Origin: Eledone cirrhosa
Taxonomy: Eukaryota
Direction of reading: 5' to 3'
NCBI GenBank assembly: GCA_964016885.1
Contig: OZ024740.1
Location: 58,838,001-58,902,000, forward strand
DNA: 64,000 nt
Part shown: positions 15,800-59,024 of the stretch, piece by piece
How positions within the stretch are numbered: the stretch's first letter is position 1
How the letters are laid out: every line of letters begins with the position of its first letter
Notes under the pieces: generated by a model
Databases searched by the model: none
What the model saw: only the letters and a program-made list of their open reading frames with translations
Told to the model about the DNA's origin: nothing
Made by a program: the position numbers and the translations under genes

Positions 15800-15928
15800 A
15801 TATATATATACATATATAGTAAAAATAATAAATTTGAAGACTAAAATCCAAAGAGGGCTTGATAAGGATAAATATATATCAAATATATAAGAACCATAGA
15901 GCAAATATTTATTAAAATAGCAGATTAA

Positions 15929-15980
15929 AGTTTAAGCAAAGAATCGCTGCTTTCACCCTTAACGGGATCTTTTGAAACTA
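15929..15980 (-). ncRNA. Degenerate type I hammerhead-like fold
   Basis: UAGUUU-CAAAAGA-UCCCGUUAAGGGU-GAAA-GCAGCGAUUCUUUGC-UU-AAACU; core has two substitutions versus CUGANGA. Confidence 0.45.
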
Positions 15981-17011
15981 AAAAAAATCAATCTGTGAAC
16001 GCAGAAGTAAATATTTCGAAAAACGTTGCAACTGAAGGAAGACAGGAAAATGATACTTTGGTTCGTAGAAACGTTCCCTGGCAAAGAACGGAAAAAACGA
16101 AGATAATATGTCATTATTTGGATCGGTGAAAACAATTACACGCAAAGACAAAACCACGTTTATTGTATAAAGGAAGTCGTAGACTAATATTCTATTAGGT
16201 GGTTCGTGGAGACGTTCTCTGGCAATGAACGGAAAAAACGAAGATAATACATTATTATGTGGAATGATGAGAACAATTACACGCAAAGACAAAATCACGT
16301 TTAAGGTATAACTGAAGTCGTAGACTAAAATTCTATTTAGGAAACCGAATGATTCTCGGCTTCAGAGTTAAGAATAATGTAAATAAATTACAGAGGTAAT
16401 TGAAATCAACAAAAATTAAATATATACATGCACGCATCCATATACGTACATACACATGCATACGCGAAACACCCACCATGGGTATGCAAATACAAGCACG
16501 TACACAAAAACACGCACACACATACAGAATCCACGCAACGCCTGAACCCGCACACATACGAACGTATACACCAAATACACATAAAAATATATATATGTGT
16601 GTGCGTTTATACATATAATTATATAAACATATATAAATATACACACATAAATATGTATATAACGCGCGCACACACATACCTACATGTAAATCCACATGTT
16701 CACTAAACGTACGTCAACCAAAACACAAAGTACCCATATACACACACCCTACATACGTGCAAACCCGCATACTCATACAGACGCAAAACTCACGTATACA
16801 CATAACCATATGCACATGTACCAGTATATATAATATAATATATACGCCTATAACATATACAAGCAAATATACGTACGAGAAAGTATACGTACCTTCATAA
16901 AACATACAGGTAATATATACTTACCTATACAAATAAGTAATAACATAAGTATAAACATAACATATACTTAGCTACCACATCAAGACATAAATTATCTGCG
17001 TATAGTTCGTA

Positions 17012-17770
17012 CTATCCGTTAGGGTATAATGTGAGGCTGTAATACAGGAAAGTTTTGTGCAATTTATGTTTACAAGCCAAAATTGCTTCAGATGTTTTGT
17101 TTAAGATGTGGTCTTTGATGTAGAGTATTTCCAGGGCTTCAGCGGCGCAGAAGTCACATGGTCTTTTATTTCCGTTATACGATCTAGCTTTAGCTAGGAT
17201 CTCTCAGTGTAACTTATATTGGGTGTGGTTGTCTTTTAGACTCCAGATATAAGCTGAAAGTGACGTCATATTCCTTCTTAGAGGGTAACGAAAAGAATGG
17301 GTATGCATGTAAAGAGGCTGCTTGAAACTATTGGCGGTTAACCCTATGTAGGCCCTACGGGACGTGGGTGTTACAACCTTACATTTGTAGACAATGTTAC
17401 TAGAGAGGCATTTCCCGGATAGGGGGCAATCAGCCCGATTCCTACAATTAGAGTTAGTACTAACTACAGGGCTGCACGTGTTCCTACGGCTAGGTAGTTT
17501 AGCTAAATTTGAAGCTGTGATGTTATGTACAAGGTTAGGAGTCGTAGAGTAAGAAATTTTAATGGCATTTCTATTAAAAATGTTACTATATTTATGTGCT
17601 GGGAAAAATGCTTCATAATAAGGGAGAGAAAGATCTTAGCTAATGGTGTGGCCACCTCCATATTATATGGTGGGTTATACCATATAATGCGCCGGGATCT
17701 ATTTTTCCTAGGTCTATTCTCATATTCTGTACATGCTACCTTATCGACAAATCCACTCCAAGCAAGAGCT
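17012..17770 (-). pseudogene. PLE linker + GIY-YIG endonuclease, frameshifted, with an internal stop
   Basis: Manual translation: RSRRIIWYNPPY...; SNCRNRADCPLSGKCLSSNIVYKCKVVTPTSRRAYIGLTANSFKQ...TSLSAYIWSLK...KLH*EILAKA...CDFCAAE...LNKTSE...CKH; stop TAG at 17012-17014. Confidence 0.88.
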
Positions 17771-18137
17771 CCATTGTAATATGTGGAATGGTCGGTGAAA
17801 ACATGCTCGTTTGTAGATAGACGTGGTTTTGTCTTTGCGTGTAATTCTTCTTTTGCCCCACATAATGATGTATTATCTCCGTTTTTTCCGTTCATTGCCA
17901 GAGAACGTCTCCACGAACCACCTAATAGAATATTAGTCTACGACTTCCTTTATACCATAAACATGGTTTTGTCTTTGCGTGTAATTGTTTTCTTACTCCA
18001 AATAATGACGTATTATCTTCGTTTTTTCCGTTCTTTGCCAGGGAACGTTTCCACGGACCAAAGTATCATTTTCCTGTCTTCCTTCAGTTGCAACGTTTTT
18101 CGAAATATTTACTTCTGCATTCACAGATTGATTTTTT

Positions 18138-18190
18138 TAGTTTCAGAAGATCCCGTTAAGGGTGAAAGCTGCGATTCTTTGCTTAAACTA
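18138..18190 (+). ncRNA. Degenerate type I hammerhead-like fold (U4A)
   Basis: Stem I UAGUUU/AAACUA, core CAGAAGA, stem II CCC/GGG, GAAA, stem III GC...GC, CUU triplet. Confidence 0.55.
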
Positions 18191-18484
18191 TAATCTGTTA
18201 TTTTAATAAATATATATATACATAAATGGAAAAAAATGAAATTTCATTTCTCACTCTTAGTACGGTTGATACTTAAATATAAGTATTATACGTACATACA
18301 TATGTGTATACAGACGTACAGTAGTATGTATATACGTACATACATGCACATATATATATATGTACGTATGGGTTTACCGAACATTTATTATAATGCTCGG
18401 TTTGTTTGTAAACAAACAGCCAAAATTTTTAGCCGTACAGTGTTCGGCAACCATCATTGCCCTTTTGTTCAACACTGATAAAGG

Positions 18485-18529
18485 AACAATGAACTAGTTT
18501 CTAGCTTATTAGCTGTCATCAGCACCATT
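18485..18529 (-). ncRNA. Minimal type I hammerhead ribozyme
   Basis: AAUGGUG-CUGAUGA-CAGCUAAUAAGCUA-GAAA-CUAG-UU-CAUUGUU; palindromic AACUAGUU stem III; C.A mismatch at 10.1/11.1. Confidence 0.75.
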
Positions 18530-18813
18530 TACCTTCCTGTCAGTCGATTGAACGTTTGATAGTATATACTTTCCTTATGCATATTAACGGCTGAGCAGCC
18601 TAATTTGCATATCGAGTGAGTTAATCAGCCGGCGTACTGAAAACGATAAATGGAAAAAAATGAAATTTCATTTCTCACTCATTTTTTTCCATTTATCGTT
18701 TTCAGTACGCCGGCTGACTAACTCACTCGATATGCAAATTAGGCTGCTCAGCCGTTAATATGCATAAGGAAAGTATATACTTTTAAACGTTCAATCGACT
18801 GACAGGAAGATAC

Positions 18814-18856
18814 ACGGTGCTGATGACAGCTAATAAGCTAGAAACTAGTTCATTGT
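18814..18856 (+). ncRNA. Minimal type I hammerhead ribozyme
   Basis: ACGGUG-CUGAUGA-CAGCUAAUAAGCUA-GAAA-CUAG-UU-CAUUGU; predicted cut after 18850. Confidence 0.75.
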
Positions 18857-18948
18857 TCCTTTGTCAGTGTTGAACAAAAGGGCAACGATGGTTGCCGAAC
18901 ACTGTATGGCTAAAAATTTGGGCTGTTTGTTTACAAACAAACCGAGCA

Positions 18949-19842
18949 GAGTCAGAACGGGGTGGAAAAAGTTCAGAGAGCTTATACCACTATTGGCCGC
19001 TAAAAGGTTCTCTCTAAAAATGAAAGGCAGGCTGTATGATGCCTGCATACGAACAGCAATGTTACATGGCAGTGAGACTTGGGCATTGTGTGCAGAGGAT
19101 ATACGCAGACTGGAGAGGAATGAAGCTTGCATGTTCCGTTGGATGTGTAATAGTAATATACGTGAACGGCAAAGCATAAATGAACTAAGGGAGAAATTAG
19201 GAATAAGAGGAATCAGATGTTGTTTACTCGAGAGAAGACTACGTTGGTATGGTGACGTCATGCGCATGAAAGACGGCAGCTGTATAAAAAAGTGCAGGGC
19301 GATAAAAATAGACGGTAGCCACGGTGTAGGCAGACCCAGAAAAACCTGGGACGACTTGATAAATTCCGACCTCACACATTTACACCTCTCCAAGACATTG
19401 TCACTGGACCAAGATCTTTGGCGCTACACAGTAATACAGAAGACCCGCCTTGCCTAAGTACAAAGCGAAACCTACAGTCAGTAGGCACCTCTAACAAAAA
19501 TACACCCCGTCCCACCACCCCCACCCTATCCACACCACCTCTTTCGATGTAAAGTTATGTTGGTACCACAACATCCAGTCCGAAATAAATGAGGTCATGT
19601 ATGTGTCATGAAAAAAAAACACACAGTCCACGCTGTAATGTGGCTGTGTAGGAAACACGGTAAAAACCTCCCAGTCCACACTGTAAACGTGGTTGGTGTT
19701 AGGGAGGGCATCCAGCCGTAGAAAACCTGCCAGACAGTCCTATGCGAGCAAGACAACCAATCTTGCCTCAAGTGGGAAAATTCCCATCCAAACCCATGCA
19801 AGCGTGGAAGTGGGACGTTAAACGATGATGATGATGAAGATG
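18949..19842 (+). mobile_element. 5'-truncated RTE LINE (same family as 59.8-63.6 kb)
   Basis: RVRTGWKKFRELIPLL...GRPRKTW...TRLA* followed by a long 3' UTR and GAT tail. Confidence 0.95.
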
Positions 19843-19974
19843 ATGTTCGGTAAATCCATACGTACATATATATATGTGTGCATGTATGTATGTATATACA
19901 TACTACTGTACGTCTGTATACATATATGTATGTACGTATAATACTTATATTTATATATACATATATATATATAT

Positions 19975-20562
19975 GTCAGGTCACTCTTGAGTGCTACTGA
20001 TAACATGTAACTCAGTACAACCTGTTGCATGGTCGGGTCATTGGCGACTAAACTGGCAACCCCAGTTGGTGAGGAGGGTGATTCTGGACACCCTGCAGGA
20101 CAAAAAACTAAATCTGACAAAGGGCGGAAGAGTCAACGGCCATCCAAAAGTGTGTAAATATGTATATACATATGTACATATGTATGTATATGTATATGTG
20201 TATATACATGAGTGCATGTGTATGTATATGCGGGGGGACATAGAAATAGCCCGATCACGCGGTTAAACCACAGGGAGGAAAGGACCCCTAGCCCATGTCA
20301 GGGCATTCTTCTAGGAGAAGGCAACTCAGGAAACTGGGATACTTCTGATATAAAACCTCCGGCTCAGTAGTTACCGATGATGTTGATCTTCTCTTCTTTT
20401 CGGGTTATAGCTACTGTCGCTCAGAGAGTGGGATTGGCTCAGTGCACAGTCTTTCCTCACTTTAAAAATATCTTCACGCACAGGCATTGCACGATAGAAT
20501 TAATTAATAATTATTAATAATGGTATATCGTGCAATGCCCATACTCGATAACGAGGGGCAGC
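19975..20562 (+). mobile_element. Bipartite non-autonomous RTE-derived element
   Basis: Homologous to 31513-31910; contains RTE 5'UTR-like CTAGGAGAAGGCAACTC; ends ATACTCGATAACGAGGGGCAGCC(ATC)n. Confidence 0.65.
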
Positions 20563-20913
20563 CATCATCATCATCATCATCATCATTTCATTTTACGTCC
20601 ACTTTTCCCTGCTTGCAAGGGTAGGACGGGAACTGATTTTGGCTTGATTTCTACAGCTGGATGCCCTTCCTAACACCAACCTCATTTACAGTGAGTGCTG
20701 GGTGCTTTTTTGCCGTGGCACCTCCACGACCACTTTGCAGTGGAATGATATGGACCCCTGTCCCTATCATCTCATTTCTACAGCTGAGGTAACTGGAGCA
20801 ATGTGAAATAAAGTGTCTTGCTCAAGGAAACAACACATCACCCAGGCTGAGAATTGAACTCACAACCTTTCGATTGCAAGGCCAATGCTCTAACCACTAA
20901 GCCATGTGCCTCC
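20562..20913 (-). mobile_element. SINE family A
   Basis: Complete copy in reverse orientation. Confidence 0.92.
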
Positions 20914-21974
20914 ATATATATATATATATATATACACACACATACATACAGATTTGAGTGAAATAGATAGAAGGGTAAACTTGTTTGAATATCTAGTTAT
21001 TCATAACTGAAAATGTATGTATGTAATGATAGGTAAATATACATAGCTTGGGTAGTTAAATGAATAAAGTAGTGATTTAGAAATTTGATTTTGATTTGCA
21101 CAAAGCCTGTAGACTGTTTAATATTTACAATTGTATTATTTTAGAAAAATAGCCAGAATTTATTTTCTATTGTTCTAGAGGAATGTAACACAAACTCATT
21201 TTATTGCAGAGCCCTTCAGCAATTTTCAAAACATTACAGAACCTACACCTATATTTCGCAGACAATTCTTACCATCCTGATTTAAAATAAGACATTAAAT
21301 TAAATGAAATCCTTTCCACAGAGAGAATTTATTTTATAAAAAAGCATCTAAGGAATTTTATTTAAAAAAATACACTTTATCTTGTAGAACCCTTGAAATA
21401 TTTTAGCAGAATCTACTTTAAGAAACAGTTATAAAGTAATTAAAATAAGATTATCTAAAAATAAAAGGTCAAATTCTCAAATGTAATTTCTTTATTTTAA
21501 ATGTTCTCATTAAAAACAAAATCCAAAAAACATTTTCAAGATAGCCAAATATTTACTTTTCTTTTAAGCTGGTGATTTATTGTGCAATAATAGCTACTTT
21601 CTAGTCCATAGGGATAACTTAATATAAAGAATCCCAAACAGTACTATATATAAATATAATGCAAGATTTAGACTGGAGATAATTGTTGTAAGGAGATGCT
21701 GTGCTGTGACAACTTTTGTATTTTCTATTGTTTTTGTTATTTCATTCTTTTCTAGCAGCTGTTGTATATATTGTTTAGCCCCATGGCCAACTTCCATTGA
21801 GTAATCCTATGATCTAATAGTGGGATAGTAATTGCGAAAGTTATTGTTTAGCCCTAGGCCAATTTTGATTGAGCAGTCCTTTGATCTGACAGCAGGATAG
21901 AAGCTGCTATAGTTATTGTTTAACCCTTGGTCAACTTCCATTGAAGCAGTCCTATGTCCAAAAGCATTTCATTA

Positions 21975-22155
21975 TTGGCAGTATCGGTAGAGGGTCGGAC
22001 GCCATGCTTTCCAGCATAGTTACGTCCCTTTACGATCTGAGTTCAAATCCCGCCGAGGTTGACTTTGCCTTTCATCCTTACGGGGTCGATAAAATAAAGT
22101 ACCAGTAATGTACTGGGTAATTGCTGGCCTTGTGCCTAAAGTAGAAACAATTAAT
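21975..22155 (+). mobile_element. SINE family B
   Basis: TTGGCAGTATCGGTAGAG ... GAGTTCAAATCC ... GCCTTTCATCCTTACGGGGTCGATAAAATAAAGTACCAG. Confidence 0.88.
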
Positions 22156-22689
22156 AACCTTCCCATCTTTTTATTTGTATTTAAGACTACCTTATCTAAT
22201 ATAACATGACAGGAGAATGTGATTTGAGGATATAAGGCATGAGAATTTGATTTGAGGGGGATTTGGCTGCTATTTCTTACAGGTTGAGTAACCAAGTAGA
22301 GTTTCTATCATTGACTCATGCTGCCGTAACTAGGCAAGTATCATACACATTGCTTTACTTACTTCTGGGTTTCACTATGAAGGTCAAGTTGAATTTTGAT
22401 GACAGAATAACAATAGGTCTGCATTAAATATGATATTTTCAGCTCTGTGTTACCTGTAATTAAACAGACCTCTGATCAAATTGGATCCAGTTGTGACCAT
22501 ACTATTTATTTTCAGAGATAGTGCATGCAAGATTATATACCATGACATTGATATCTTTAAGACAGAGTGGGATTTGATAGATTTAATCATTATTTCTACC
22601 TGTCAAGTGATTGTATAGAGGGCCCCCTCCTCACCATCTTGCTATGTGAATAGTTATATTTACATTAGTATGTATTTATGTTTGTAGAG

Positions 22690-25224: not shown

Positions 25225-25225
25225 A

Positions 25226-25720: not shown

Positions 25721-28700
25721 TGTATGTATGTATAGACATATCATGCCAGCATGAAAAGATGTACATTACATTATGATATATATCCACAAAGATTTTGTTT
25801 TAAGTTTACATTTCTTTTTTGTTTTTGTTTTTCTTAAATGTTTTCATGGTTATTTACATTTTCGTTTATTTAGTATTCTTCCAACTCTTTTATTTACAGC
25901 GTTCTTATATTATGCTCTGAATTTGAAATTCACTTTAAACTATACATTTCAACAAGCGGTGATCCAATGTCTAATTTTATTCGGCTGTTTAGCATTAATT
26001 TTAAAGAAATAACCATATGTTTACGATTTTTAATGAGTTGTTATTTACACTATTTTCTCTTGTTACCATTTCTGATATTACCATCATCCTTGTATGTCCA
26101 CTTTTCCATACTTTCTGTGGTACCTCTCTTTATTTAGGAATGCACTTCAGTATATTCATAGTTATATAAAAAAAAACATAATAATATAATGGTTACAGAA
26201 CGAAAACAAACACATATGATATATACAAAGCACGTAATAGGACCACATACAACAAAAAGGATGTGATAGGGTTTGGAAAACTAACCGCTAACAGAGCAAA
26301 AGATAACAATATTGCGAAGAGCACAGGGAAACCTCTCTAATATTTTTTTAGGCAAGCCAGCACACTCGCAGTGTTACCTCGAGTGATGGCGAGGCTGATG
26401 TGCTAGAACAACCAAGCGCCCTCATGAGCATCACCAGTTATCTCAGTTAGGTGAGCTGCCAGTGAAGATAAGAACCTCGCAGTCAGTAGCCCAATTCCTT
26501 CCTCCAAACATCTCGAACGCCACAGGATGTTCTAGGGAGCTATTGCATCCAAATAAATAAGTGATTGGTTTTTTACCACATAGGTACTGTCTTATATCTA
26601 AGAAAAATATTTCATACTATCCATCTCAATTCACCTAGATAATGCTTTGGTATGAAAAATAAGATATATTTCTGGTTATAACATTAATTGTGGGAAAATA
26701 TTAATTTAATTTTGTCTAATAGAACCTATAACAAAGTTTGTGATGACACTTTTCTTTCCTATTCTGTGCACATTAAACAATATTTAGTATTGAATCATCC
26801 ATTAATGGATGGCTTTACTTCACCGACAGGATACTCAAGTATCAAAACATAAATGTAACTTTATCAACTACAGTTACACATACAAAGCAGACTTTTTCAC
26901 AACATTAATTCAATGCTTATTAGATTCATACTTATTATCATGAGCGTCAAACCTAATTTGTAAGATAATTTAAAATTAATGAAGAGAATCATACTTAGTG
27001 TATACCAGTAAGAGTATATATATTATTTCTGTCATCTGATATAATCAGTTAGATTTAATTGAATAAATCTTCAAATAAAACATTATTTTAATACCATGGT
27101 AGGTTTAGTATCTACTTATTAGGTAGTTATTAAGTATGTTTCCTCTTTAATTTAACCTCTGAGTGTTTACCTTCAATGAAAAAGATTCATAATGTAACTT
27201 TTGTATTTTTTAAATGAATAAAACCTTGAGATCTATCAAAATAAACCCTACTTTCAATCTATAGCTAGTGTAAGATCTGATTTTAATATGAAATGACGCA
27301 GCAGCGAGAAAAAAAATGCTCTGTCAATTAGAAGTCAAGCAGAGCTTTTTCTTAAGATTCTAGACTCTTTTTTCCATTTTGAACTGCCAGCAAAATCTCA
27401 CTTTTATTGGGAGAATAAAAGAATATTGATTTTGATAAGGTACTGAAAAGCAAAGAAGGCACTTCCAGTTGAATTAACATATTTATTTAGTACACTAAAA
27501 GGGGGAAAATTATATTTAATAAAAAAAATATATATCTTAATACTCAAAGCAGCTGACTTTCTGACAAGATACATTTCATTGATTTAGTAAACAAGTTTCA
27601 ATTTGATCATTGTATGTTGCTTTAAATAGGAGCAGCTACATTGGCATTGAAAATTCCCAATTGGAAATTTGGTCAATCAGTTCTTAATATACTTTAAGAA
27701 AGACTGCTTTGGTCTATCTATATTTCTTCAATGTAAATAATCTCAATACATCACAATTGTAAATTGATCTTTTCAGACATAATAATTATCTTCATGCATA
27801 AGTGTCAGAGAAGAGGGAGAAATAAAAATATATGCATCTTTTTAATTTTGTGAAAAAAGTGACTATGTTCTAACTAGAAAGAAAGTTGTTGGATTACTGA
27901 TAACATTTTTAAATAGAATTCATTAAAAAATTAATGAAAGACAAGCTTTAGAATCTTGCCAAAATTTACCAATATTTTAGTGTTTAGTTTTAATTAAGAA
28001 TTGCTGTCTTAAAGAAAAATATTCTTTTAATTAGATATTTTTTTGTTGTTTTAAAATGTGTCAATTACATTTTGATAAAATATAATTAATCAATTTTTTT
28101 TTTATATTCCAGCTTCTGACAAATCAAGTGTTGTTAAATATGCATAACAAGATATTGTTAATTACCTCCTTTCTTATTAGTAGTAAGTCTCTAGTTGAGT
28201 ATAAGTAAAGAATTTCCATATAATAAAGTACTCTTTATATGTATGAATACTGCCATTATTAATAATATCTTTTGATATAACATGCATATCAAAGCTTGAC
28301 TTCTAAGACTTAGTACTATTTTTCGTTACATTTATGTTGGTTTTATTTTAGAGAAGCAGTTGTTGTTGTTGTTGTTATTGTGCAGCCTCAGATCTGCTCT
28401 TATTGAACAAACTTATGGAATATAGATAATTAGCTGTATGATCCACATATACTTATAACATACATCTGTATAGTTGAGGAGTACACTGCACATTCTGACA
28501 TGCATTGATTAACAAGATGTTATAGTTTGCTTGAAACATTGTGGAATGTGTAGAAAATATTTGTTTGTTTGTTTTTTGTCAGAGACTACAGCTACGCAGA
28601 TACAATATTAATGACTCCATATTGATTTCTTCCTTGATTTTATCCCAAAATATTAAGGAATATTAAGGATTAATTAATCATTTAGCATTAACATTACTCC

Positions 28701-28856
28701 ATATATACTATTGTATTTTTACAGTAAAGGCTTTATCTTACATAAGATCTCACATAATATCGAATCTATGAAATTTTGATATTATGTATACCTTAACATA
28801 ACAATACCTTAACATCAGTATGAGTGACGACTTCTGGCTGGATACAACCAGTTTAA

Positions 28857-29061
28857 CCCTTTAGCATTTAAACTGGCCGTATCTGGCCAGAATTCTCTCA
28901 CCTCTCTCTGTTCAAACCGGCCATAAGTGGTTGCTCATACTGATGTTAAGGTATTGTTCTCAAAATAAATAATATCAAAATCTCATAGATTCGATATTAT
29001 GTGTGGTAAAGCCTTTACCATGAAAATATATTAAATGTAGAGTAATGCAAATGCTAAAGGG
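28857..29061. mobile_element. piggyBac-type MITE
   Basis: TTAA TSD on both sides; perfect 13-bp TIR CCCTTTAGCATTT. Confidence 0.88.
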
Positions 29062-29479
29062 TTAAATGTTAAAGTGTTAAACACCCTCACGGTAACTTTC
29101 CAACAGATTAGTTATTTTATTTTTGGCATTCAATATCCTATTTTTATGCATTGATTAACTATATGTGGTGTAGCATTACAGTTTGATTAGGTTGTGCTCT
29201 CTTCAATGACCAGTTTATTTCCAAGTGTGTAGATTCTGTTGGTAGTCACAAAAGGAGGTGGGCAAGGTAATTTCTACTCAAATATGATAACTACTGCTTC
29301 TCTTCATTTATCTGTAGTGCTGTGCAATCCAGCACAATGTTTGAGGCTAATGATCATATTGATAATGAGGCTATTTTTGTGTGTATGTGTTTTTTGTTAT
29401 GTTTGTGTGATCTGAATAAGATAGTGTTCTTAGGATGTTGTTGTAGATGTGTCTCTTTGATTGTGTGTATAATACTAGT

Positions 29480-30997: not shown

Positions 30998-31469
30998 GTA
31001 CACACAGAGATACATATATAAGTAACTTTGTCTCTAATATACATAACATCTCAATGAAAAAAGATTTCCAAAATTTAATTCAGAGAAGCATATACATATA
31101 GAACATCTTATACAAAATCACTGATGGGTAGATCCCAGTAAAGAAATTTAAAACAAGAAAACTTCACAAGCATCTTTCCCTAGGGGTAGAATCTTAGTTA
31201 AGCAATTTGAAGCTAGAAGGCTGCACTAGGTTCCCTTACTGATAGGAACAGAAAGATACCACAGTTAAAATAAGGAACTCAATGCATTAAGTAGAGTAGT
31301 TATTTGATTTATTTCAGATAGAAATGACTTCTACAGGACTAGAACAGTTTCATTTGTTTGAAATCATGAGGAAAGTCCTGAAAGTTCTGTTTGAAATAAA
31401 TCATGTACATACATACAGCCACATACAGAAATATATATATGTATATATATATACAGAAATATATATATA

Positions 31470-42269: not shown

Positions 42270-43140
42270 AAATCCCAAACAAGGTGTGAAGCCACTTAGT
42301 GTAAGGGACTATGAAGGAGGAGAAATTAAGTTGAAAGGAATGATTTTACTTTAGATTTGAAAGAGTTCAGGTCATAAGAAGGAGGTAAACAATGAGATGG
42401 AAGAGAATTCCAAAGTCTTGCAGTTTGAGGAAAAGAGCTACGACTGTAGAAAGACTTCCTTATTTGTGGAACCACAACAAACATCTGGCTGAAGGCACTG
42501 TAAGTTTCAAGTTAGTGGCATGATGGGCACCTGCCCAGATATGACAATAATATTCCACACAAGGGCGAATTGTGGACTTGTAAGTACAACATGGCCTTGG
42601 ATGTGAGGTAGTCCTTTGACCTATACAATGATCCAACCTTATGGGAAGCAGACCTACTATTTCATTGTATGTAAGAACCCCAAGAACGATCAAGTGAGAA
42701 AGTAAGATGGTGCAATTTCAAAGAAGACCTTCCACATGTGGTTTGACTGTCTCACCATGTGACACCTCAGACCTATAACTCAGGTAAATGGGAAGAAGAT
42801 AGAGATCGCACTTCCTACTGAAAGACATGAGTGTGGTTTTGCCAGGGTTGAAAGTTATTAGCCACCTCTTGCTCCATTTCTTAACAGCCTGCAGATCCAC
42901 TTCAAGATTAGCAGCAAATTCCAACCATTTCAAGAGAGAAGGATTGCCAGGAAAGCCAGAATAAAAAGTAGTATCATCAGCATAAATGTTGATGAAATGA
43001 AGAAGATTGGCAGGTAGATTGTTGAGATGGATGAGAAATAGAGTTGGATCAAGAATAGAGATTGAAATCTTAGGTTAAGCGTTCCCTGAAAAAGTGCTCT
43101 GAATTATTTGGGATTGGAATACCATCTAGAGAACACGTCT
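42270..43140 (-). mobile_element. Decayed CR1/L2/Jockey-group LINE RT and 3' fragment
   Basis: IYADDT, DLQAVKKWSKRWLITFNPGKT, YKSTIRPCVEYYCHIWAGA, PQTARLWNSLP. Confidence 0.85.
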
Positions 43141-47295: not shown

Positions 47296-49903
47296 GATTT
47301 TTTTTAATGGAGAATCCCTTATGTTTCTCACTGTACCATTTTATAGTTCATAAACCCAAGCAAAAATCGATCTAAGTAATCAATTATCAATTACCATCTA
47401 TTGATTTTGATAAAGCTAAGTATTATGTGCTTTATATATATGTACAAAATATTATGTCTTTCTCAAACGATATATGGTTCTTTATATACATGTATCTTTT
47501 AACTTGAATTATATATAAATATATCAATATATATTGTTATACTTGGGGAGGGTCATATTTGTGTAATAATATTGCCAGAATTAACAACAGAACAAATATC
47601 AATATATATGTACATACATATACATACACACACACACACATACACATATATATGTGTGTGTGTGTGTGTGCGTGTGTGTATCCCAGGCTCAATCGGGGGT
47701 AATGACAGTAAGTAAGGTACTCAATACATAGAGTATATAGAATATTTAATATAGAAATGGCTTCTATAAACACACACATATACATATTAATCCAAGCCTG
47801 CAACATTTTGCTTTGTATGCAAATAAGCTTCATCAGCCTATGTACATAAGCATAAAAACTATATGCCTTTTGCTTATTTCATCTTAACAACCAAAAAGAA
47901 TAAGTCTCTCTGGCGATGGTGAAAGAACAAGAAATGGTACTGTCAGTGTGCCCTCTCTTTGTTGCTAAGAATAATAACAACATGATAACAGCTTTTTTAA
48001 AATTCATAGCAAGGCTACAAGGATGTTTATTTACATGAACATTTCATATATACTTCAATATACAGCCTCAGTCATATATATATAGGGCAGGTAAAATTCG
48101 TGAGATAGTATATATATATATAGCTCCAGACCAAACCACATATATATATATATGGTTTAGTCGGGAGCTATGCCTTTTGCTTTTGAGAATTAGATTAAAT
48201 GACATTTAAGTAGATTTCATTTAGTGGATTGTAAAATCTGAAGTAGCTAAAATGTTGATTTGAGTTGTTAAATAAAATGCTTCATTATTTCTTATTTTAC
48301 TGCAAGTGCAATAGTCCTTTTGTTCAAAACACTTAACCACATTTAATTTAGTTTGGGGATTTATATTTTGTCAGAAGGACCAATTATATGTACTAGTTGT
48401 AGGCTAAAAGAAATAAGTAGCTTACAAATTTTTGCATATAGTCTAGAGAAACTTTCAAATAACCTTAAAATTAGAATTGATCCTGATTTCTAATTAGGGA
48501 ATTGTATCAAAATATTGATACCATGCTTTCTCTTCATTTACACCAAGCCGAAAAGTGAATTTAATTTTATTGGAAAACAGAATCTGCCAACTTAGCCATT
48601 ATTTCCATCACTGCATTTTCCAATAAACACTGTTGACATCTCTCTTGGATTCAATAATTTACTTAACATAGCTGTCTCTTGACTGAAGAGCAAATGGGTA
48701 TCAAAATTATGAATTACTGAAAAGATATTGATTTACTTTGAAATATCAATTTATTTTTCAATATATTCTAAACAAATGTTTAATTAAGTATTTTCCATTT
48801 TCAAATTACAGTGTGAACACAACAGGCTTAACTTTACCCATACACTCTATAAGGAAAATAATTTACATTTTACATTTACAAATACTACAGCAGCTGTTCT
48901 ATTATTTGGACAGATATTGAATATATTTCAGAAACCATTCACATTTTATATGTCTTTGGCTGAGGAAATAAACAGCAATTTCTTTATCATTTAAATTTTC
49001 TTATTGGCAACATGACCCTCCCAAAGTATAACAATATCGGTTTCAACACACGATTTCAGATAAAGAATCTTGCTAAACAAATTCAGAAACGAAATGTCAT
49101 AAATCAAAATATATCAAAACTGATGATTTGATAAAATTAAAGCAAGACATTCCTTTTTTAGTTCTTTTATATCATGATAAATGCAAGTATAATAAATTAT
49201 TCTGACATGTTAGAGAAAGATTTGTATGTCATCTTATCGAGTATTTATGAAAGAGAGCAGCCAATTTTGTTTATATTAAAAATCCTTTAGTTCTATTATA
49301 AACAACTCTTTGTGGTTGCTCTCTCCACTTACTCCTAATTGTTTCATAATTTTTAAGTTACCAAAATTATGTTGTGTCAAATTGTGCCAAATGTTCTTTT
49401 CCATTCATTTTTAAACAATCTCTTTTTTTTTCATGTGGTAAAATCATTTGCATTTAAGTTTTAATATCTAAGTTTCATTAACACACTTTATTACAGTTCT
49501 AACAAGGCCTAGACAACCATTTGAACTTATTTCCATTCCCATAACGCCTATACAATGTAAGAAGTAATAAATCTTACATACTTGTACTAATGTAATATAA
49601 TATTATATATATAATATTATTCTACAGACATGGCTTTGAAGAAGCTGTTTGCATAATTGCAAACGGATCGAATATTATTATTAATATTCGAAAAACTCAG
49701 ATTACATTTATATATATATAATATTATATATAATATAATATTGTATATATATATGTAATATTTTATATAATATAATAATATATATAATATTATATATACA
49801 TATATATATATAATATTATATTATATATAATATTATATATATATATATATATACTATTATATTATATAAAATATTACATATATATACAATATCATATGAT
49901 ATA

Positions 49904-49941
<38 letters not shown>

Positions 49942-49967
49942 TATAATAAAAAAACATAAGATAATTA

Positions 49968-50028
49968 TTTCATTTACCAGTGGTTTCTTGAAAGCAAACA
50001 AAATTTCCTTTCAATCATCAGAATAAAA
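49968..50028 (-). ncRNA. Type I hammerhead ribozyme
   Basis: UUUUAUU-CUGAUGA-UUGAAAG...CUUUCAA-GAAA-CCACUGG-UA-AAUGAAA; intact core, 7-bp stem II, GUA triplet. Confidence 0.85.
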
Positions 50029-50637
50029 AAATCCTGGTGTATTTATTGACAGTGGATATTAGAAAGCAAAAATATAATCTATATGAAAATGAGGCTGGAA
50101 AAGGAAGAAGGAAAGGAAAAAGAATAAGTATAAAAGTAGATAAACACACATGCATGCACACACACACACACATGCACACACACATATACATACACACATA
50201 TATACATATATATACATATACACATATATATATATACATACACACATATATATATATATACATACACACATATATACACATACATATATATATACATATA
50301 CATACATACACATATATATATATATACATATCCATACATACACATACACATAAATACACAAACACAAACAACTTAGGAAAATAAAAATAAAAATTATTAT
50401 AAAGTTGACAGCGATACAGGAAAGGACACAAATAAATGAACAAACACACGTGGTAAGCAATAAACACATTTACACATACACATACATACATATAAATATA
50501 TACATACACACACACACACATACACACACATATACATATATATATATACATACATATATATATACACATCATCATCATCGTTTAACGTCCGTGTGCCACG
50601 CTTGCATATATACACACACACACATACATATACATAT

Positions 50638-51421
50638 ATCATCATCATCATCATCACCGTTTTACGTCCGTTCTTCCACGCTAGCATGGGTTAGACGGGT
50701 TGTCCTGTTGTGGGCAGTGTCTGGTCGGCTGACCATGCCTTGCTCATACAGGAACTGATCTGGCTTGATTTCTACAGCTGGATGCCCTTCCTAACACCAA
50801 CCTCATTTACAGTGAGTGCTGGGTGCTTTTTCGTGGCGCCTACACGTCCACTTTACAGTGTGGGCTGGGTGCTTTTTTGCCGTGGCACCTCCACGGCCAC
50901 CTTGCGGTGGGTGGGGGGGGGGGGGGGCATATTGTTTATATGCTTCAGCATGTACCCATGGGAGGTCGGGTACCCTGTATTACTGCGTGACGCCAGAAGT
51001 CACGGTCGTGTGTCATTGACTTTGAGAGGTGTAGTTGGGTAAGGTCGGCTTTTATCACCTCATCCCAAGTCATCTTGGGTCTCCCCACTCCGCGGTTTCC
51101 ATCAACTTCTAGTGCTCTGCACCTTTTTATGCAGCTGTCATCCTTCATACGCATCACATGTCCATACCAGCGTAACCGCCTCTCCTGCACGCAGCATTTG
51201 ATTCCTCTTATGCTCAGTCTCTCTCTCAATTCCTTTATGCTTTGTCGTTCACGTATATTACTGTTACACATCCATCGGAGCATGCAGGCTTCGTTTCTCT
51301 CTAATCTACGTAAGTCTTCCACCTTCAGCGCCCAGGTCTCACTACCATGCAACATCGCTGTTCGGATACACGCATCATACAGTCTGCCTTTCATTCTGAG
51401 GGAGAAGCCTTTTGCAGCTAA
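50638..51421 (-). mobile_element. 5'-truncated RTE LINE with a SINE-A-like 3' UTR
   Basis: ORF 50945-51469 LAAKGFSLRMKGRLYDACIRTAMLHGSETW...; UTR matches the 10320-10567 SINE tail. Confidence 0.93.
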
Positions 51422-51502
51422 TATATATATACATATGTGTGTGTGTAAAACATTCTTTGATGTATTCATTGAACCTAGTATAACTCTTAAATATATATCT
51501 AT

Positions 51503-52396
51503 ATATATACGAAATAAATTAAATTAAATTAAATTAAGGGAGTCATGCCCGAGACATGCACCATATCCACCGTAGAATAAGCTCAAAGATTCCATTGAAT
51601 AGATCCAAGCATTTTATATCAACTAGAAATTGATTGACATATATATATATATTTAAAATAAACACATGAAACAATCACAGGGGATAATTTGTAAAGTGTG
51701 TAATCACACATAGCATTTTTTAAAAGGTAATATTTGAAGCTCTAGTTAAACTTTAATTAGTTACCTACCTAGCTGTGTGTGATTACACACTTTACAAATT
51801 ATCCCCTGTGATTGTTTCATATGTTTATTTTAAAAATATATATATATGTCAATCAATTTCTAGTTGATATAAAATGCTCGGATCTATTCAATGGAATCTT
51901 TGAGCTTATTCTACGGTGGATATGGCTCGGACATGACTCCCTTAATTTAATTTAATTTAATTTATTTCGGATATATAAACGGCTCCTTAATTGTAGAGCT
52001 AAATCGGTTGAAAGGACTCGGCTGCTATTTATAGCTGTCGACCACCCTATTCACGCCAATGGGAGGACGCTAGCATGTTGTTAGTAGTTTTAGAATTACA
52101 ACATGTGCGACGGGTCACTCGCAGATTTGCATTTGATGTGTAAACACAGATAGTTATTTCTTGCCCCTTGCTGAATATCCAAGATTTGACTACTGTGACT
52201 TTACGGATTATTGGTGAAATATATACAAGGAGGATTAAACATTTTTTAAAAGGTAATATTTGAAGCTCTAGTTAAACTTAATTAGTTACCTACCTAGCTA
52301 TGTGTGATTACACACTTTACAAATTATCCCCTGTGATTGTTTCATGTGTTTATTTAAAAAATATATATATATGTCAATCAATTTCTAGTTGATATA
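51503..52396. mobile_element. Foldback + tandem non-coding element (526-bp unit) with a degenerate HHR
   Basis: 51503-51714 is inverted at 51772-51977; 51714-51871 is directly repeated at 52240-52396. Confidence 0.85.
52166..52230 (+). ncRNA. Degenerate type I hammerhead-like fold (G8U)
   Basis: CCUUG-CUGAAUA-UCCAA...UUGGU-GAAA-UAUA-UA-CAAGG; palindromic minimal stem III. Confidence 0.55.
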
Positions 52397-52587
52397 TATA
52401 TATATAAGAAAATACATAAATATTATATATATATAAAAATAAAAAGGTGGAAGGGGTAAACAAATAGTTGGGAATACGACAAATAATAAATAAATAGATA
52501 AAGGTATAAATGTTTATAGCTGATTTAGAGCACTCAACAAGTTCCTAGAGCAAATAATCAATGAAAATAAACATTAAATCACTCTGT

Positions 52588-53020
52588 GCATCATCATCAT
52601 CATCATCATCAACGTTTAACGTCCGTGTTCCACGCTTGCATGGGTTTGGACGGGGGTAGTCCCACTTGAGGCAAGAGTGATTGTCTTGCTCGCATAGGAC
52701 TGTCTGGCAGGTTTTCTACAGTTGGATGCCCTTCCTAACACCAACCACATTTACAGTGTGGGTCTGGGAGGTTTTTACCGTGTTGCCTACACGGCCACAT
52801 TACAGCGTGGACTGTGTTTTTTTGTCATGACACCTACACGATCTCATTTGTTTCGGCCTGGATGGTGTGGCACCAACATAACTTTACATAGAAGGGGGCG
52901 GTGTGGATGGGGTGGGGGTGGTGGGACGGGGGTGTATTTTGTTAGAGATGCCTACTGACTGTAGTAGGTTTTACTTTGTATTTAGGTAAGGCGGGTCTTC
53001 TCTATTACTGAGTACCGCCA
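52588..53020 (-). mobile_element. RTE 3' fragment (family of 59.8-63.6 kb)
   Basis: Near-identical to 59855-60272. Confidence 0.93.
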
Positions 53021-53347
53021 ATATATATACACACACACACACACAACCATACAAATACACACATATATACATATACATACATATATATATATATATACAT
53101 ATACATATAGGAAAAAGTATGACCCCGACGGCAGAGCTCAAGCCGTTTCGACGGCTATTATATATATATACACATATAAACACATACATATATATAAAAA
53201 TACACATATACACACACACATATATACAAAAAGTTGCGTCACCATCTTAATAAAAATACACACACACATATAAACACACACATATATATATACACACACA
53301 TATACACACATACATTTATACATACAGATATATACAATTATATACAC

Positions 53348-53399
<52 letters not shown>

Positions 53400-53715
53400 T
53401 TATATACACATATACACAACACATACATACACACAGAAATAAATATCTATAAATAAAAAACGTGGGTATGTAAAGGGTAAGGTAGAAAGTAGGGGGGAAT
53501 AAGGAAAAATAAATAACATAGGAAAAAGTTTAAATATAAGGGGAGATAAGGGAGAAAAAGAATATAAGAGTACAGAAAGTGAGTTCATAATTAATTGTGT
53601 GTGTGCGTATGTAGGTGTGTGTACATATATCTATATTTCTGTGTGCGTATGTATGCATGTGTGTATATATGTGTGTATGTGTGTGTGTATGTACATGTGT
53701 ATATATGTATGATTA

Positions 53716-53764
<49 letters not shown>

Positions 53765-53865
53765 GTGTGTGTGTATGTATGGATATGTATATATATATAT
53801 ATATATGTGTATGTATGTATATGTATATATGTATATATATGTGTATGTGTATATATGTGTGTATG

Positions 53866-53940
<75 letters not shown>

Positions 53941-54109
53941 GTATATATGTGTGTATGTATATGTGTGTGTGTGTGTGTGTGTGTGCATGTGTGTTTATCT
54001 ACTTTTATACTTATTCTTTTTCCTTTCCTTCTTCCTTTTCCAGCCTCACTTTCATATAGATTATATTTTTGCTTTCTAATATCCACTGTCAATAAATACA
54101 CCAGGATTT

Positions 54110-54170
54110 TTTCCTTCTGATGATTGAAAGGAAATTTTGTTTGCTTTCAAGAAACCACTGGTAAATGAAA
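54110..54170 (+). ncRNA. Type I hammerhead ribozyme
   Basis: Inverted copy of 49968-50028; one mismatch in stem I; predicted cut after 54163. Confidence 0.82.
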
Positions 54171-54416
54171 TAATTATCTTATGTTGTTTATTACATAACT
54201 AATAAGCTCTCTAACCTACATAGAGCACTCTTTTTTCCTGGACCTTTCCGACGGAATTACTTCATTTATATATATATATATATATAAATGTAATCTGAGT
54301 TTTTCGAATATTAATAATAATATTCGATTCGTTTGCAATTATGCAAACAGTCTCTTTAAAACCATGTCTGTAGAATGACCCCATAATTCTTTATCTTATG
54401 TTGGCATGTAAATAGA

Positions 54417-54463
54417 ACTGCAGATACTAATGTTTCTGGATGATTACCCTTCATCAGTACAGT
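54417..54463 (-). ncRNA. Type I hammerhead-like fold, stem III damaged
   Basis: ACUGUA-CUGAUGA-AGGGUAAUCAUCCA-GAAA-CAUUAGUA-UC-UGCAGU. Confidence 0.6.
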
Positions 54464-54611
54464 ATACTGCCAACTGCCACAGCTAGTGAAAATATATGAT
54501 ATTTTCTAAAATATACAGTGACTGATCGGCCTGTTTTGCATATTAGCAGACTCTGCCTGATCAGTCAGATCTGCATATTAGCAGACTCACTGATCAGGCA
54601 GTCTGCTAATA

Positions 54612-54696
<85 letters not shown>

Positions 54697-55132: not shown

Positions 55133-55195
<63 letters not shown>

Positions 55196-55490
55196 TCATC
55201 ATCATCATCATCATTTCATTTTACGTCCGCTTTTTCCCTGCTTGCAAGGGTGGGACGGGAACTGATTCTGGCTTGGTTTCTACAGCTGGATGCCCTTCCT
55301 AACACCAACCTCATTTACAGTGAGTGCTGGGTGCTTTTTTGCCGTGGCACCTCCACGACCACTTTACAGTGGAATGATAGGGACTCCAGTCCCTATCATC
55401 TCATTTCTACAGCTGAGTAAACTGGAGCAATATGAAATAAAGTGTCTTGCTCAAGGAAACAACACACCACCCGGTATATATATATATATA

Positions 55491-55529: not shown

Positions 55530-55596
55530 TTATATATATATATATATACTTATATATATATATATATATACTTATATATATATATATATATATATA

Positions 55597-55647
<51 letters not shown>

Positions 55648-55744: not shown

Positions 55745-57110
55745 TGACTTGGGCTTTGGTGTTGATGTAGAGCAGTGATATCAGGTCCACTATCTTCTAG
55801 GGGATTCCATAGGCCTGTAAGATCTTCATCAGGCAGTGACGGTCCACAGAATCGAAGGCCTTCCTAAAGTCAATGAAAACCATGACCGCAGGAAGGCACT
55901 TTGCTTTAGCTCCCTCTAACATCCTCCTCAGCATCAGGATGTGACTGGTGGTTGATCTTCCCTCTCTGAAGCCGTTCTAGTTGTCCCTGAGCCTCTTCTC
56001 CATCTCAGGCTGGACCCTGTTAAGAATCATCTTGTTGAGGGTCTTTGCCACAAGTGATGTCAGTGAGATCCCCCCTGTAGTTGTTGGTGTTAGAGAGATC
56101 TCCCTTCTTTGGCACTGGGACGATGTTACTGATCCTCCACTGATTAGGGGCAACTCCTTTTTCCAGTGCCTGGTTACAGAACCCCAAGTCATTACACCTG
56201 ATGGGATGACAGAGTTCTTTGAGATACTGGCTGGAGTGCTCCAGGGAGATACATTGGCTCCCTACCTTTTTATCATCGTAGTGGACTATTGTATGCGCCT
56301 TGCACTGGAGAAACACCAGGACTCTGGCTTTACTGTAGCACCGGCTCAGAGCGGGAGAGTTAAGGCAAAAAAGATATCGGATGGTGAATTTGTCGACAAC
56401 ATAGTTTTGGTGACAAATACAGTGAAGGAGGCAGAGGATTTGATGCAGGGGGTTGAGACTGTGTTGATGAGTGTGGGGCTGAGAATGAATGAGACTGAAA
56501 CAAAATATCTGGTAGAGAATGTTGAGAAGCCAAAGGGGATAACTAATGTAGGCGGGAAGCCGCTAGAATTGGTTGAGGACTTCCTGTATTTGGGAGCAAA
56601 GATTGGGAATATGGAAGATGATGTGGTTGAGAGGAAGAGCAAGGCCAGGGCGGCGTGCCACAGCTTGAGATCGGACCTTCATAAAGACCTGAAAATCCGC
56701 CTCTTCATTGCTGTAGTGGAGTCTGTGCTGGTGTACGGGTCTGAGACTTGGACACTGACCGAGAAACTCACTCAGATGGTGAATGGGTGCTACACGAGAA
56801 CGCTGAGGATGGCTCTGAACATTAATCAGTATACACTGAGGATGAAAAACAGAGCTGTATGCAAGCCTCCCAAAAGTCAGCTCAAAAGTGACACAGAGGA
56901 GACTGAGGTTAGCTGGACATGTTCACCGACTTTCAGAGTTGACATTGCACTCAGTGCTCCTGTGGGAGCCCCTACATGGACACACTGGAAGAGGAAGACC
57001 AAAGTTAACGTATGTTGATGCCCTAAGGACAGACACTGGTCTGTTGGAGACGCAGGACATGGCAGCGATAATGAGGGACAGAGACCGCTGGAGAGAACTC
57101 GTCCAGTGAG
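55744..57110 (+). mobile_element. 5'-truncated RTE-group LINE with an inverted 5' segment (55744-56182 on -)
   Basis: - strand: QWRISNIVPVPKKGDL...NGFREGRST...FIDFRKAFDSV...YINTKAQV; + strand continues QVITPDG...GVLQGDTLAP...YGSETW...GRPKLTY. Confidence 0.92.
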
Positions 57111-57299
57111 TAAAATGAAGTTGCAGCTATGGCTAGTATCTCTCTAAAGAACAATACTCAGAAGCTTGCATAAGCACTCAATAAGATGATATCAATAAAT
57201 AGATAAGTTAAATCTCAGTATAATAAACATACGTTAAAGGTGTGACAAATTGAAAACTGCGGCTAGGTAAAGAATGCCACAAAAGCCACTACAACAAAA

Positions 57300-57830
57300 A
57301 TACAAACAGGTTAATATGAACCTGGACCTGGTCGATAGATATTATAAAATAACTTCGATTGGTTTCTGGGAATCCTAAATCAGCAATCCAAACTGCGCAA
57401 TATGCAAGTCAGTACTGTAACTTAAGATCGAACATGGATTCACTTTTTCAACTGGCATTTTGTTCTGTATACCAACAGCTCGGTATGTTGGCACTGGTCT
57501 TAATCACTATAGTATCAGCTATAACAGTGGGGTCATGTGTTCTTTCTCAAGGAAGGAGAAAGAATCACATCCGGGTTTTTGGAGACAAATTCAAAGTGTG
57601 AACAAATATATATATATACTTATAATATAATTGAATATATGAGAGGGATGAACACCGATACAAGTATGCATGTGTTCCAATTACAAATGACCAAGTTAGC
57701 TAGGTTGAAAAAATACTAATTCAAAACAATATGGTTTATTTTAATTATATTACACGGCTCGGAAAGATTCCCTTCTTTGAGCTTAATTGTAAAAGACTAT
57801 TTTGAGTTTCTAACTCAATCTATGATATAT
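57300..57830 (+). mobile_element. Possible heavily decayed PLE endonuclease-region remnant
   Basis: Broken frame SNPNCAICKS...GFTFSTG...RYVG resembles the CxxC/GIY-YIG region; very degenerate HHR-like trace at 57679-57721. Confidence 0.3.
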
Positions 57831-58397
57831 ACTTATATATTAATTTATTAATTCTTACTGTTCAATTATTGTATTGCTGCTACTAAATTTTCTTTTTTAA
57901 TTTTAAATTAGTAGAGCTGGTTTAAAGCTATAGCAGTGCAATAATAGTACTTTTAGCATATTAGTTGATCTGGGCATTTGTCAGACGATATAATGAATAA
58001 TTTTATGTATTAATTAAAATATTAATATATGTAATTTTGCCCTTAACATTAAATTTTAGTAGAGCTGTTTTATTTAGACCAAACATGCTCCTACTTCTAG
58101 CAATCGCTTTGGCCTGCCTGTATCCTTAAATTATAACATCTTCAGCATGTGCGTTCACATTCTGTTTTTGAATTTATGGGGATCAGTCTTTTCTAATCCG
58201 TTTATTAAGACATATCTCTACTGATGATGGGTTGGTTTGTCTTAATGGTGCCATTTATTTAATACTTGGCCCTATTTCTCTTTTACTTACTTTCCAATTT
58301 TCTTTGTCAATGTACATATATATTGAAATATATATAGTGTCTGCAGAAATATAACATTAAAGGAATTTCACCAATCCAGCCTCCTCTCATTTTATTC

Positions 58398-58446
<49 letters not shown>

Positions 58447-58563
58447 TGTGTATATAGTATATTTGGCAATACACTGTATTTAAAAACATTTTGAAAACCT
58501 TACGCTATTGTTTTAAAGTAGTGACTATGTCACTTACTTCTTTTTTCAACAAATAAAGGGAGA

Positions 58564-58611
58564 TAAGCTGACAGATCTCTGTTTCATACTGTTGGTATTC
58601 ATCAGAGCTTA
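58564..58611 (-). ncRNA. Type I hammerhead ribozyme
   Basis: Exact reverse complement of 58804-58851. Confidence 0.92.
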
Positions 58612-58803
58612 GCACTCTCCTTTGTCTGTTGAAAATTATAAATGTTGGATTCTTATAGAATTCCAGTAATAATCAGGAACTGATTATACAGAGCCGGTCC
58701 AGCAAAAATTGAAAATAGAATTGGTGCTCTGAAATAGCGATGTATATATGTATATACATCGCTAATCCAACATTTATAATATTCAACAGACAAAGACGAG
58801 TGC

Positions 58804-58851
58804 TAAGCTCTGATGAATACCAACAGTATGAAACAGAGATCTGTCAGCTTA
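58804..58851 (+). ncRNA. Type I hammerhead ribozyme
   Basis: UAAGCU-CUGAUGA-AUAC-CAACA-GUAU-GAAA-CAG-AGAU-CUG-UC-AGCUUA; all three stems Watson-Crick, GUC triplet, predicted cut after 58845. Confidence 0.93.
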
Positions 58852-58988
58852 TCTCCCTTTGTTTGTTGAAAAAAGAAGTAAGTGACATTGTCACTACTTT
58901 AAAACAATAGCGTAAGTCTTCAAAATGTTTTTAATTAAGCATATACTATATATACATTCATATATACATCGCTATTTCAGAGCACCAA

Positions 58989-59024
<36 letters not shown>

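Follow-up and report, generated by a model that had tools for sequence, protein, structure and literature searches.

The subject of this report is a 64,000-nucleotide stretch of the Eledone cirrhosa genome (contig OZ024740.1 of assembly GCA_964016885.1, positions 58,838,001 to 58,902,000; hereafter the window), in which hammerhead ribozyme motifs of several families occur in head-to-head pairs that we interpret as insertion products of Penelope-like elements (PLEs). The window is AT-rich and contains dense (TA)n tracts together with pieces of short and long interspersed nuclear elements (SINEs and LINEs).

Hammerhead motifs and repeat units in the window

An earlier note, made from the sequence of the window, had claimed at least seven hammerhead folds, including four divergent inverted pairs (A, B, C and E) and a single motif (D). 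A scan with a type I hammerhead descriptor recovered all nine motifs named there, each in place, and looser scans added F and G, which brings the total to 11 type I folds from seven families, A-G (Table 1). Enrichment over shuffled sequence, one of the checks proposed in the note, was evident: six matches scored at least 25, against a mean of 0.15 (maximum 1) in 40 block-wise dinucleotide shuffles. The core CUGANGA is perfect in the window hammerheads of B, C, E and F. Hammerhead A carries U4A, with G5A in addition in the left copy, and G carries G5C. Hammerhead D carries G8U and is missing 17 nt of stem III, the core of family D being otherwise intact. Self-cleavage of the window hammerheads is a prediction; several have a short palindromic stem III, a feature that has been linked to dimer-dependent cleavage (PMC4209133).

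Each divergent pair consists of two 5'-truncated copies of one 3' end, placed head to head in a (TA)n tract, and all five units of the window have exactly one tailed end. In units A, B and D the long arm includes all of the short arm. In units C and E each arm has a part that the other lacks: the tail of the short arm overhangs, and the long arm extends further in the 5' direction. The arms of unit A overlap by 3 nt at their junction, and on the minus strand the order is inverted 3' end, truncated open reading frame (ORF), 3' untranslated region (UTR), hammerhead and 85-nt tail. The span of unit C, approximately 4 kb, stems from later insertions, namely SINE and LINE pieces and unit D. Hammerhead D had been described as lying beside a foldback, which is explained by the inverted arm of unit D stopping short of the hammerhead.

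Table 1. Positions of the repeat units and hammerhead motifs in the window (RT, reverse transcriptase)
Feature	Position	Strand	Remarks
Unit A main arm	15819-17823	-	5'-truncated Hydra-type PLE ending at (TA)n; 89% to near-intact copy L042
Unit A tail	15819-15904	-	about 85 nt; end of main arm
Hammerhead A left	15929-15979	-	core CAAAAGA (family U4A and private G5A); sense to unit A ORF
Unit A RT thumb and C-terminal GIY-YIG remnant	17015-17823	-	precedes 3' UTR of about 1 kb, then hammerhead
Unit A inverted arm	17821-18213	+	second copy of unit A 3' end; untailed
Hammerhead A right	18135-18193	+	core CAGAAGA (U4A, fixed in family A)
Unit B left arm	18219-18680	-	428-nt ORF-less monomer family; tailed end
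Hammerhead B left	18485-18529	-	descriptor scan
Unit B right arm	18683-18948 and 19843-19953	+	untailed; split by later LINE 3' fragment at 18948-19845
Hammerhead B right	18814-18856	+	descriptor scan
Hammerhead G	about 31312-31373	-	decayed, seventh family; core CTCATGA; matches a cluster of hammerheads from the genome sample
Family F 3' fragment	49619-49733	+	115 nt; similarity to F
Unit C long arm	49936-53587	-	microsatellite-rich 3' UTR of second Hydra-type PLE; untailed
Hammerhead C left	49963-50033	-	descriptor scan
Unit D inverted arm	51497-51714	-	tailed; too short to reach hammerhead
Unit D main arm	51715-52391	+	about 1.3 copies of 526-541-nt ORF-less monomer; untailed
Hammerhead D	52166-52230	+	decayed copy
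Unit C short arm	53587-54268	+	tailed (tail about 54202-54268)
Hammerhead C right	54105-54175	+	descriptor scan
Family F copy	54266-54616	-	perfect-core hammerhead inside
Hammerhead F	about 54407-54461	-	perfect core; sixth family
Unit E left arm	58439-58759	-	319-nt ORF-less monomer family; untailed
Hammerhead E left	58556-58619	-	descriptor scan
Unit E right arm	58764-58994	+	tail of about 29 nt (about 58966-58994)
Hammerhead E right	58804-58851	+	descriptor scan

Coding and ORF-less families behind the units

The GIY-YIG endonuclease remnant noticed earlier is real and belongs to unit A. A genome search for family A gave 4,141 candidates, among them near-intact copies in which a single ORF of 713 (L042) or 709 aa (L047), encoding RT together with a GIY-YIG endonuclease at the C terminus, is located upstream of hammerhead A; 124 homologs of the protein were found at E<=1e-20. 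The protein has the DKT, CxCX5C, CxxC and CxH motifs and lacks CCHH, and its RWK motif reads RWR, as it does in 21 of 70 aligned homologs. In family C the end of a GIY-YIG domain, with CxxC and CxH visible, was met 1.3 kb upstream of the hammerhead in two of 30 loci (L103 and L113). Unit ends of both families adjoin (TA)n, both in the window and at most of the loci inspected. By these features A and C are Hydra-type PLEs, probably of the Hydra clade. The RT and endonuclease domains were assigned partly by motifs that we take to be diagnostic. The other basis was the published motif list (PMC8557442). Pfam returned nothing relevant for the GIY-YIG remnant and the full family A ORFs, with no RT or endonuclease match. 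A profile hidden Markov model missed the window's own remnant in the translated 64 kb, so that misses of this model are weak evidence. A search for a solved relative found none. The other RT ORFs of the window (36451-38660, 42718-43074, 55981-57018 and 60957-63290) were considered as further Hydra-type candidates and rejected: only unit A matched the family A protein, and two of the others carry an APE-type endonuclease.

Families B, D and E are of a different kind. Their monomers have a GC content of 31-35% and a longest ATG-initiated ORF of 22-38 aa, and in genomic copies the sequence beyond the tail re-enters the element's own monomer with periods of 428 (B), 526-541 (D) and 319 nt (E). Such continuation was seen at many independent loci, and tandem junctions occur in all three families; two sense hammerheads are present in a few B loci (L063/L074, L077 and L078) and in no window unit. 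The permuted units pointed out in the earlier note are borne out, and B, D and E are non-coding, retrozyme-like monomers. Its description of the whole set as non-autonomous probably holds for B, D and E, and fails for A and C, which are truncated 3' ends of protein-coding PLE families.

Alternatively, B, D and E could be stumps, i.e. partial pLTR-pLTR tandems, of autonomous PLE families whose coding copies were not sampled. The genome search gave 2,620 (B), 3,087 (D) and 2,529 (E) candidates, and in each search only the best 40 of 2,000-3,000 candidates were scored and 30 were fetched, so that the figures describe top-scoring copies; moreover, family C had also seemed short until ORF-reaching copies turned up. 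Three observations make the stump explanation improbable. The tail of B, D and E re-enters its own monomer, whereas that of A runs into the ORF's beginning (L047). Among the top-scoring copies, none of 44 B hammerheads and none of 22 D hammerheads had a Hydra ORF end sense-upstream; 1 of 38 E hammerheads had one, which belonged to a neighbouring family A copy. Finally, the monomers of E and B fold as strongly paired circles (z -6.2 and -6.5, the latter possibly inflated by a self-complementary microsatellite; D, -2.7).

In B, D and E, common variation of the core is confined, in the copies collected by similarity, to N7, which is a free position (E: T28/G17/C4/A1 of 60; B: T51/C11 of 70; D: A21/T4 of 37), and the core of family C is perfect in 25 of 26 copies. 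The covariation that the note had asked about exists and is thin: C-G (26) to U-A (6) in stem II of D, G-U (54) to U-G (4) and U-A (2) in stem I of B, and two changes at each of two pairs in stem II of E. The pattern suggests that the hammerhead core is likely under selection in B, C, D and E.

Family A keeps the fold, and its core has U4A in 40 of 48 copies and CUGA in none. An exact 31-mer with U4A has 17,572 genomic copies, as compared with 70 for the canonical version and 57 for a control A-to-T change. A canonical-core subfamily of A was therefore ruled out, and the numbers indicate that the family amplified with U4A. With 10 of the 60 hammerheads in the genome sample described below, family A is second only to one mixed cluster of 11. 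Its ribozyme is likely weakened or dispensable. The related change U4C lowers activity, yet suffices in a viroid (PMC3088659); U4A is not named in the accessible text of that paper, its Figure 5 and supplements aside. Two related hammerheads elsewhere in the genome (L083 and L142) have a U4C core (CCGANGA) and a long stem III, and perhaps represent a second variant-core family.

Family F (2,882 candidates) has a tail of its own and looks like another ORF-less monomer. Two of its 3' ends flank unit C and point towards each other, so that members of one family are arranged convergently here; this may have come about either by two insertions in one TA tract or by inverted duplication of the flank when C landed. 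A copy of unit B with the identical LINE interruption lies approximately 284 kb from the window (L064, G000:C1:58571306-58574554), which suggests a local segmental duplication.

Two 3' ends and one tail per insertion

In every family the copies stop at one of two fixed 3' points, either tailed (about 29-110 nt) or untailed, and the 5' ends are scattered. Pairs in B, D and E were counted after manual removal of four duplicates and exclusion of five copies that had no scorable end; a divergent partner was present in 33 of the 78 scorable copies, and convergent partners came only from one neighbouring duplicated unit. Exactly one arm is tailed in 26 of the 33 pairs, neither in six and both in one, whereas approximately 16 one-tailed pairs would be expected if the ends were independent. 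For family A, a hand count of neighbours within 5 kb in the first 100 listed places gave 16 divergent, one convergent and four same-strand cases. The E and D junctions were divergent in 35 of 35 cases, with extra bases in 15. Fourteen apparently convergent B junctions were set aside collectively, not one by one, as matches to the self-complementary microsatellite of B; an anchor test gave none.

The 5' ends of E and B were surveyed with queries beginning at the cut site. An inverted copy adjoined the 5' end in 34 of 60 copies (some of these being the two arms of one insertion). Clustering of 5' ends at the site of cleavage, which would be a sign of cutting in vivo, was absent: two of the 60 copies start within 4 nt of the cut, although ranking by top score may under-sample copies ending just 3' of it. 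Most copies read through an intact hammerhead, which suggests that the template was uncut or re-ligated.

Paired arms have non-majority variants in common at 12-35% of variant sites (18/104, 11/89, 10/39 and 17/48), whereas unrelated copies do so at 4-9% (6, 6, 4 and 9%, respectively); the paired arms differ from each other at 3-5% of sites, as compared with 4-6% for unrelated copies; some loci contributed several pairs to this comparison. The pattern fits an origin of both arms from one source followed by independent decay.

Taken together, these data favour the reading that a divergent pair consists of two 5'-truncated, hammerhead-bearing 3' ends joined in (TA)n, likely by one insertion event of a PLE RT-endonuclease, to which we assign a probability of approximately 0.8. 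The PLE linkage, (TA)n targeting and inverted 5' repeat invoked in the earlier note are borne out by the PLE ORFs, the (TA)n-abutting ends and the anatomy of the arms. In the proposed mechanism the enzyme, probably of the Hydra clade, would nick the two DNA strands and initiate two cDNAs by priming at two RT start sites, located on a single RNA or on RNAs that stem from one source locus. The template would span the uncut or re-ligated hammerhead, as in a multimer or a circle, and the cDNA ends would be joined by microhomology or untemplated bases. Two primings, one per strand and per start site, would yield a divergent pair with one tail. Monomers B, D and E would borrow the PLE enzyme in trans, the arms would decay neutrally after insertion, and the ribozyme would likely serve the source elements rather than the inverted pair. 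A PLE protein does nick and extend both strands of AT-rich DNA in vitro; PLE RT was found to start at two internal sites bounding the tail, and insertion took place without hammerhead cleavage (PMC11167929).

The inverted arm could also arise by self-priming (fold-back) of one cDNA or antisense template, followed by endonuclease trimming at the tail, as has been proposed for the head-to-head repeats of rotifer PLEs (PMC3846280). This would account for the common source of paired arms and for the short arm lying within the long arm in A, B and D. Since neither arm contains the other in C and E, where the arms are not copies of each other, a single fold-back fails for these units; furthermore, many junctions have extra bases or overlaps instead of a clean hairpin, and the extension of both strands in vitro (PMC11167929) points to two primings. 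We regard fold-back as an unlikely general explanation.

Several observations weigh against the favoured reading. Seven of the 33 B/D/E pairs deviate from the one-tail pattern, and family A gave two convergent calls in 28 loci. Junction microhomology is modest: overlaps of at least 4 nt occur in 7 of 35 E/D junctions versus 2.8% under the null, and BLAST end effects possibly contribute. The probable placement in the Hydra clade is by motifs. No autonomous partner of B, D and E and no common upstream ORF were found among 60, 60 and 30 top-scoring loci of the three families, and the three monomers share no similarity or recognition motif beyond microsatellite; because the partner was not found, we infer mobilization in trans, and the PLE clade responsible, from the footprint. 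As to the ribozymes, none of 10 isolated motifs folds better than shuffles (z +0.9 to -1.8), and for most of them the three-stem fold is not the minimum free energy structure.

Genome-wide load and relation to known systems

Sixty evenly spaced 10-kb stretches (600 kb) of the 3.0-Gb genome were scanned. They contained 60 hammerheads, 48 of them with perfect cores, versus 0-3 in five shuffles; at the same threshold the window has seven in 64 kb. The hammerhead density of the window is thus ordinary genomic background, about one per 10 kb. An estimate weighted over 46 stretches from the four large chromosomes (52 matches) and the 14 others (8 matches) gave approximately 2.6 x 10^5, so 2-3 x 10^5, hammerheads for the genome. 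The 60 sampled hammerheads fall into 24 clusters. A count of divergent versus tandem pairs, suggested in the earlier note, gave 13 divergent, no convergent and two same-strand pairs within families, as compared with 16, 10 and 23 between different families. Hydra-type coding sequence was matched in 14 of the 60 stretches (approximately 27 kb of the 600 kb, frames possibly being double-counted). Hammerhead families are often nested in the TA tracts of other families, as in L198 with seven matches, or in the window, where A and B abut at 18213-18219.

These numbers bear on two further explanations. One would have the motifs match by chance within foldback DNA transposons of high AT content. A scan of the window with Rfam indeed gave no hammerhead at the gathering score and none among the 150 listed of 177 weak matches, and the folding z-scores of the isolated motifs are weak. 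The excess over shuffles in the sample, the linkage to PLE ORFs, the confinement of core variation to N7 and the few two-sided stem changes leave this explanation hardly any probability. The other is that divergent pairs are maintained as functional modules, i.e. as two-way terminators or as sources of double-stranded or circular RNA on read-through transcripts. The earlier note had argued that read-through would meet one sense ribozyme on either strand and form long double-stranded RNA. The geometry is as described, since a sense hammerhead is present on either strand and the arms could pair; a function is not supported, as the arms decay independently and are about as divergent from each other as from unrelated copies. 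In addition, the cores of A left, D and G have lesions, later insertions break B and C, and the window has the average hammerhead density of the genome. We see no support for a function of the inverted pair itself, and we consider maintenance as modules very unlikely.

The divergent layout, presented in the earlier note as a recurrent architecture, is an already published PLE insertion footprint and is genome-wide background here. An inverted 5'-truncated copy, a one-sided tail and (TA)n targets have been described for PLEs (Craig et al. 2021, PMC8557442); the same paper catalogues Penelope-13_HM, of the Hydra clade, as having an inverted 5' copy and hammerheads on each strand, and lists Hydra-1_Obim from an octopus. 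Head-to-head has been called the most frequent arrangement (Arkhipova et al. 2013, PMC3846280). Inverted 3' ends, a tail at one end, junctions with microhomology, AT-rich targets and two RT start sites are shared with the insertions analysed there and by Frangieh et al. (2024, PMC11167929); what differs here is that the pattern was counted across coding and non-coding families of one genome, and that tails are about 29-110 nt.

Family A resembles Hydra-clade PLEs with an endonuclease in its RT of about 710 aa with C-terminal GIY-YIG, in DKT and CxCX5C, in CxxC/CxH around the catalytic E/N and in the lack of CCHH; both A and C share with them a hammerhead near the 3' end and (TA)n targets. The hammerhead stems of A and C differ from those of the listed Hydra-1_Obim, and their 3' UTRs are approximately 1-1.3 kb long and rich in microsatellites. 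Unlike the listed Hydra hammerheads, which all start with CUGA, the core of A is fixed for U4A, and its tail measures about 85 nt instead of 30-40.

Families B, D and E share with animal non-LTR retrozymes (Cervera and de la Pena 2020, PMC7229834) ORF-less, permuted monomers of low GC content with one type I hammerhead, predicted paired circles and co-occurrence with PLEs. In contrast to the long tandem arrays of retrozymes, they are mostly dispersed copies shorter than a dimer, in head-to-head pairs and with PLE tails in (TA)n. The monomers of E (319 nt) and B (428 nt) fall within the retrozyme range of 150-450 bp, and D (526-541 nt) is above it. The 'active' retrozyme of a 2026 preprint (Li, Clavereau and Pollet; bioRxiv 10.64898/2026.07.22.740005) has two hammerheads in the same orientation, an arrangement that no window unit has. 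PLEs have been proposed as movers of retrozymes from co-occurrence and phylogeny (PMC7761336 and the same preprint). A term search of the accessible text of PMC7229834 and of the preprint, its supplements aside, did not find the inverted, tailed, microsatellite-associated footprint for retrozymes.

Published hammerhead counts, obtained with other descriptors, are >6,000 for a coral, about 5,000 for a mussel and up to 120,000 for the axolotl (PMC7229834). The load of E. cirrhosa is the largest that we found reported, counts from different descriptors being compared. Our literature search found no octopus hammerhead study of such load, and the word 'ribozyme' was not found in the accessible text of an octopus repeat annotation (PMC13282606). 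Three points may be new: monomers that lack ORFs carry the footprint, the hammerhead load is very high, and the commonest family has spread with U4A. The chances appear to us about even that the two-start-site footprint on ORF-less retrozymes would prove mobilization by PLEs from uncut or circular RNA, that the load would stand as a record, and that U4A, carried by tens of thousands of copies of the most successful autonomous family, would be either a new active natural variant or a sign that catalysis is dispensable for PLE transposition in vivo.

The findings bear on the enzyme that moves retrozymes and on the role of the hammerhead in PLEs. The match of the footprint between coding and non-coding families makes trans-mobilization testable, with the footprint available in thousands of copies and both 3' ends mapped, and family A offers a naturally occurring core variant for comparison with the families in which the core seems to be selected. 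At about one per 10 kb the hammerheads are also a concern for annotation, as their palindromes are easily taken for miniature inverted-repeat transposable elements (MITEs) or microRNA hairpins. The window itself has a degenerate foldback of 390 nt without a hammerhead (28674-29065), possibly a MITE, with related sequence at 41075-41195.

Other repeats in the window include a young tRNA-derived SINE ending in (CAT)n (10112-10567, 11245-11614, 14934-15822, 20561-20933 and 55136-55475), which has Rfam tRNA matches at 10139 and 20843 and forms an inverted pair at 14934-15822. LINEs with an APE endonuclease and RT are represented at 36490-39215 (+), 59853-63290 (-), 18948-19845, 50967-51423 and 52589-53021. 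The copy at 60957-63290 has an open frame of 777 aa, and its 3' part is common to the SINE, which suggests a LINE/SINE pair. A second short interspersed family of approximately 160-220 nt occurs at 1899-2117, 7909-8150, 9148-9331, 21974-22156, 33159-33875 and 34409-34742, and is in tandem at 33434-33752.

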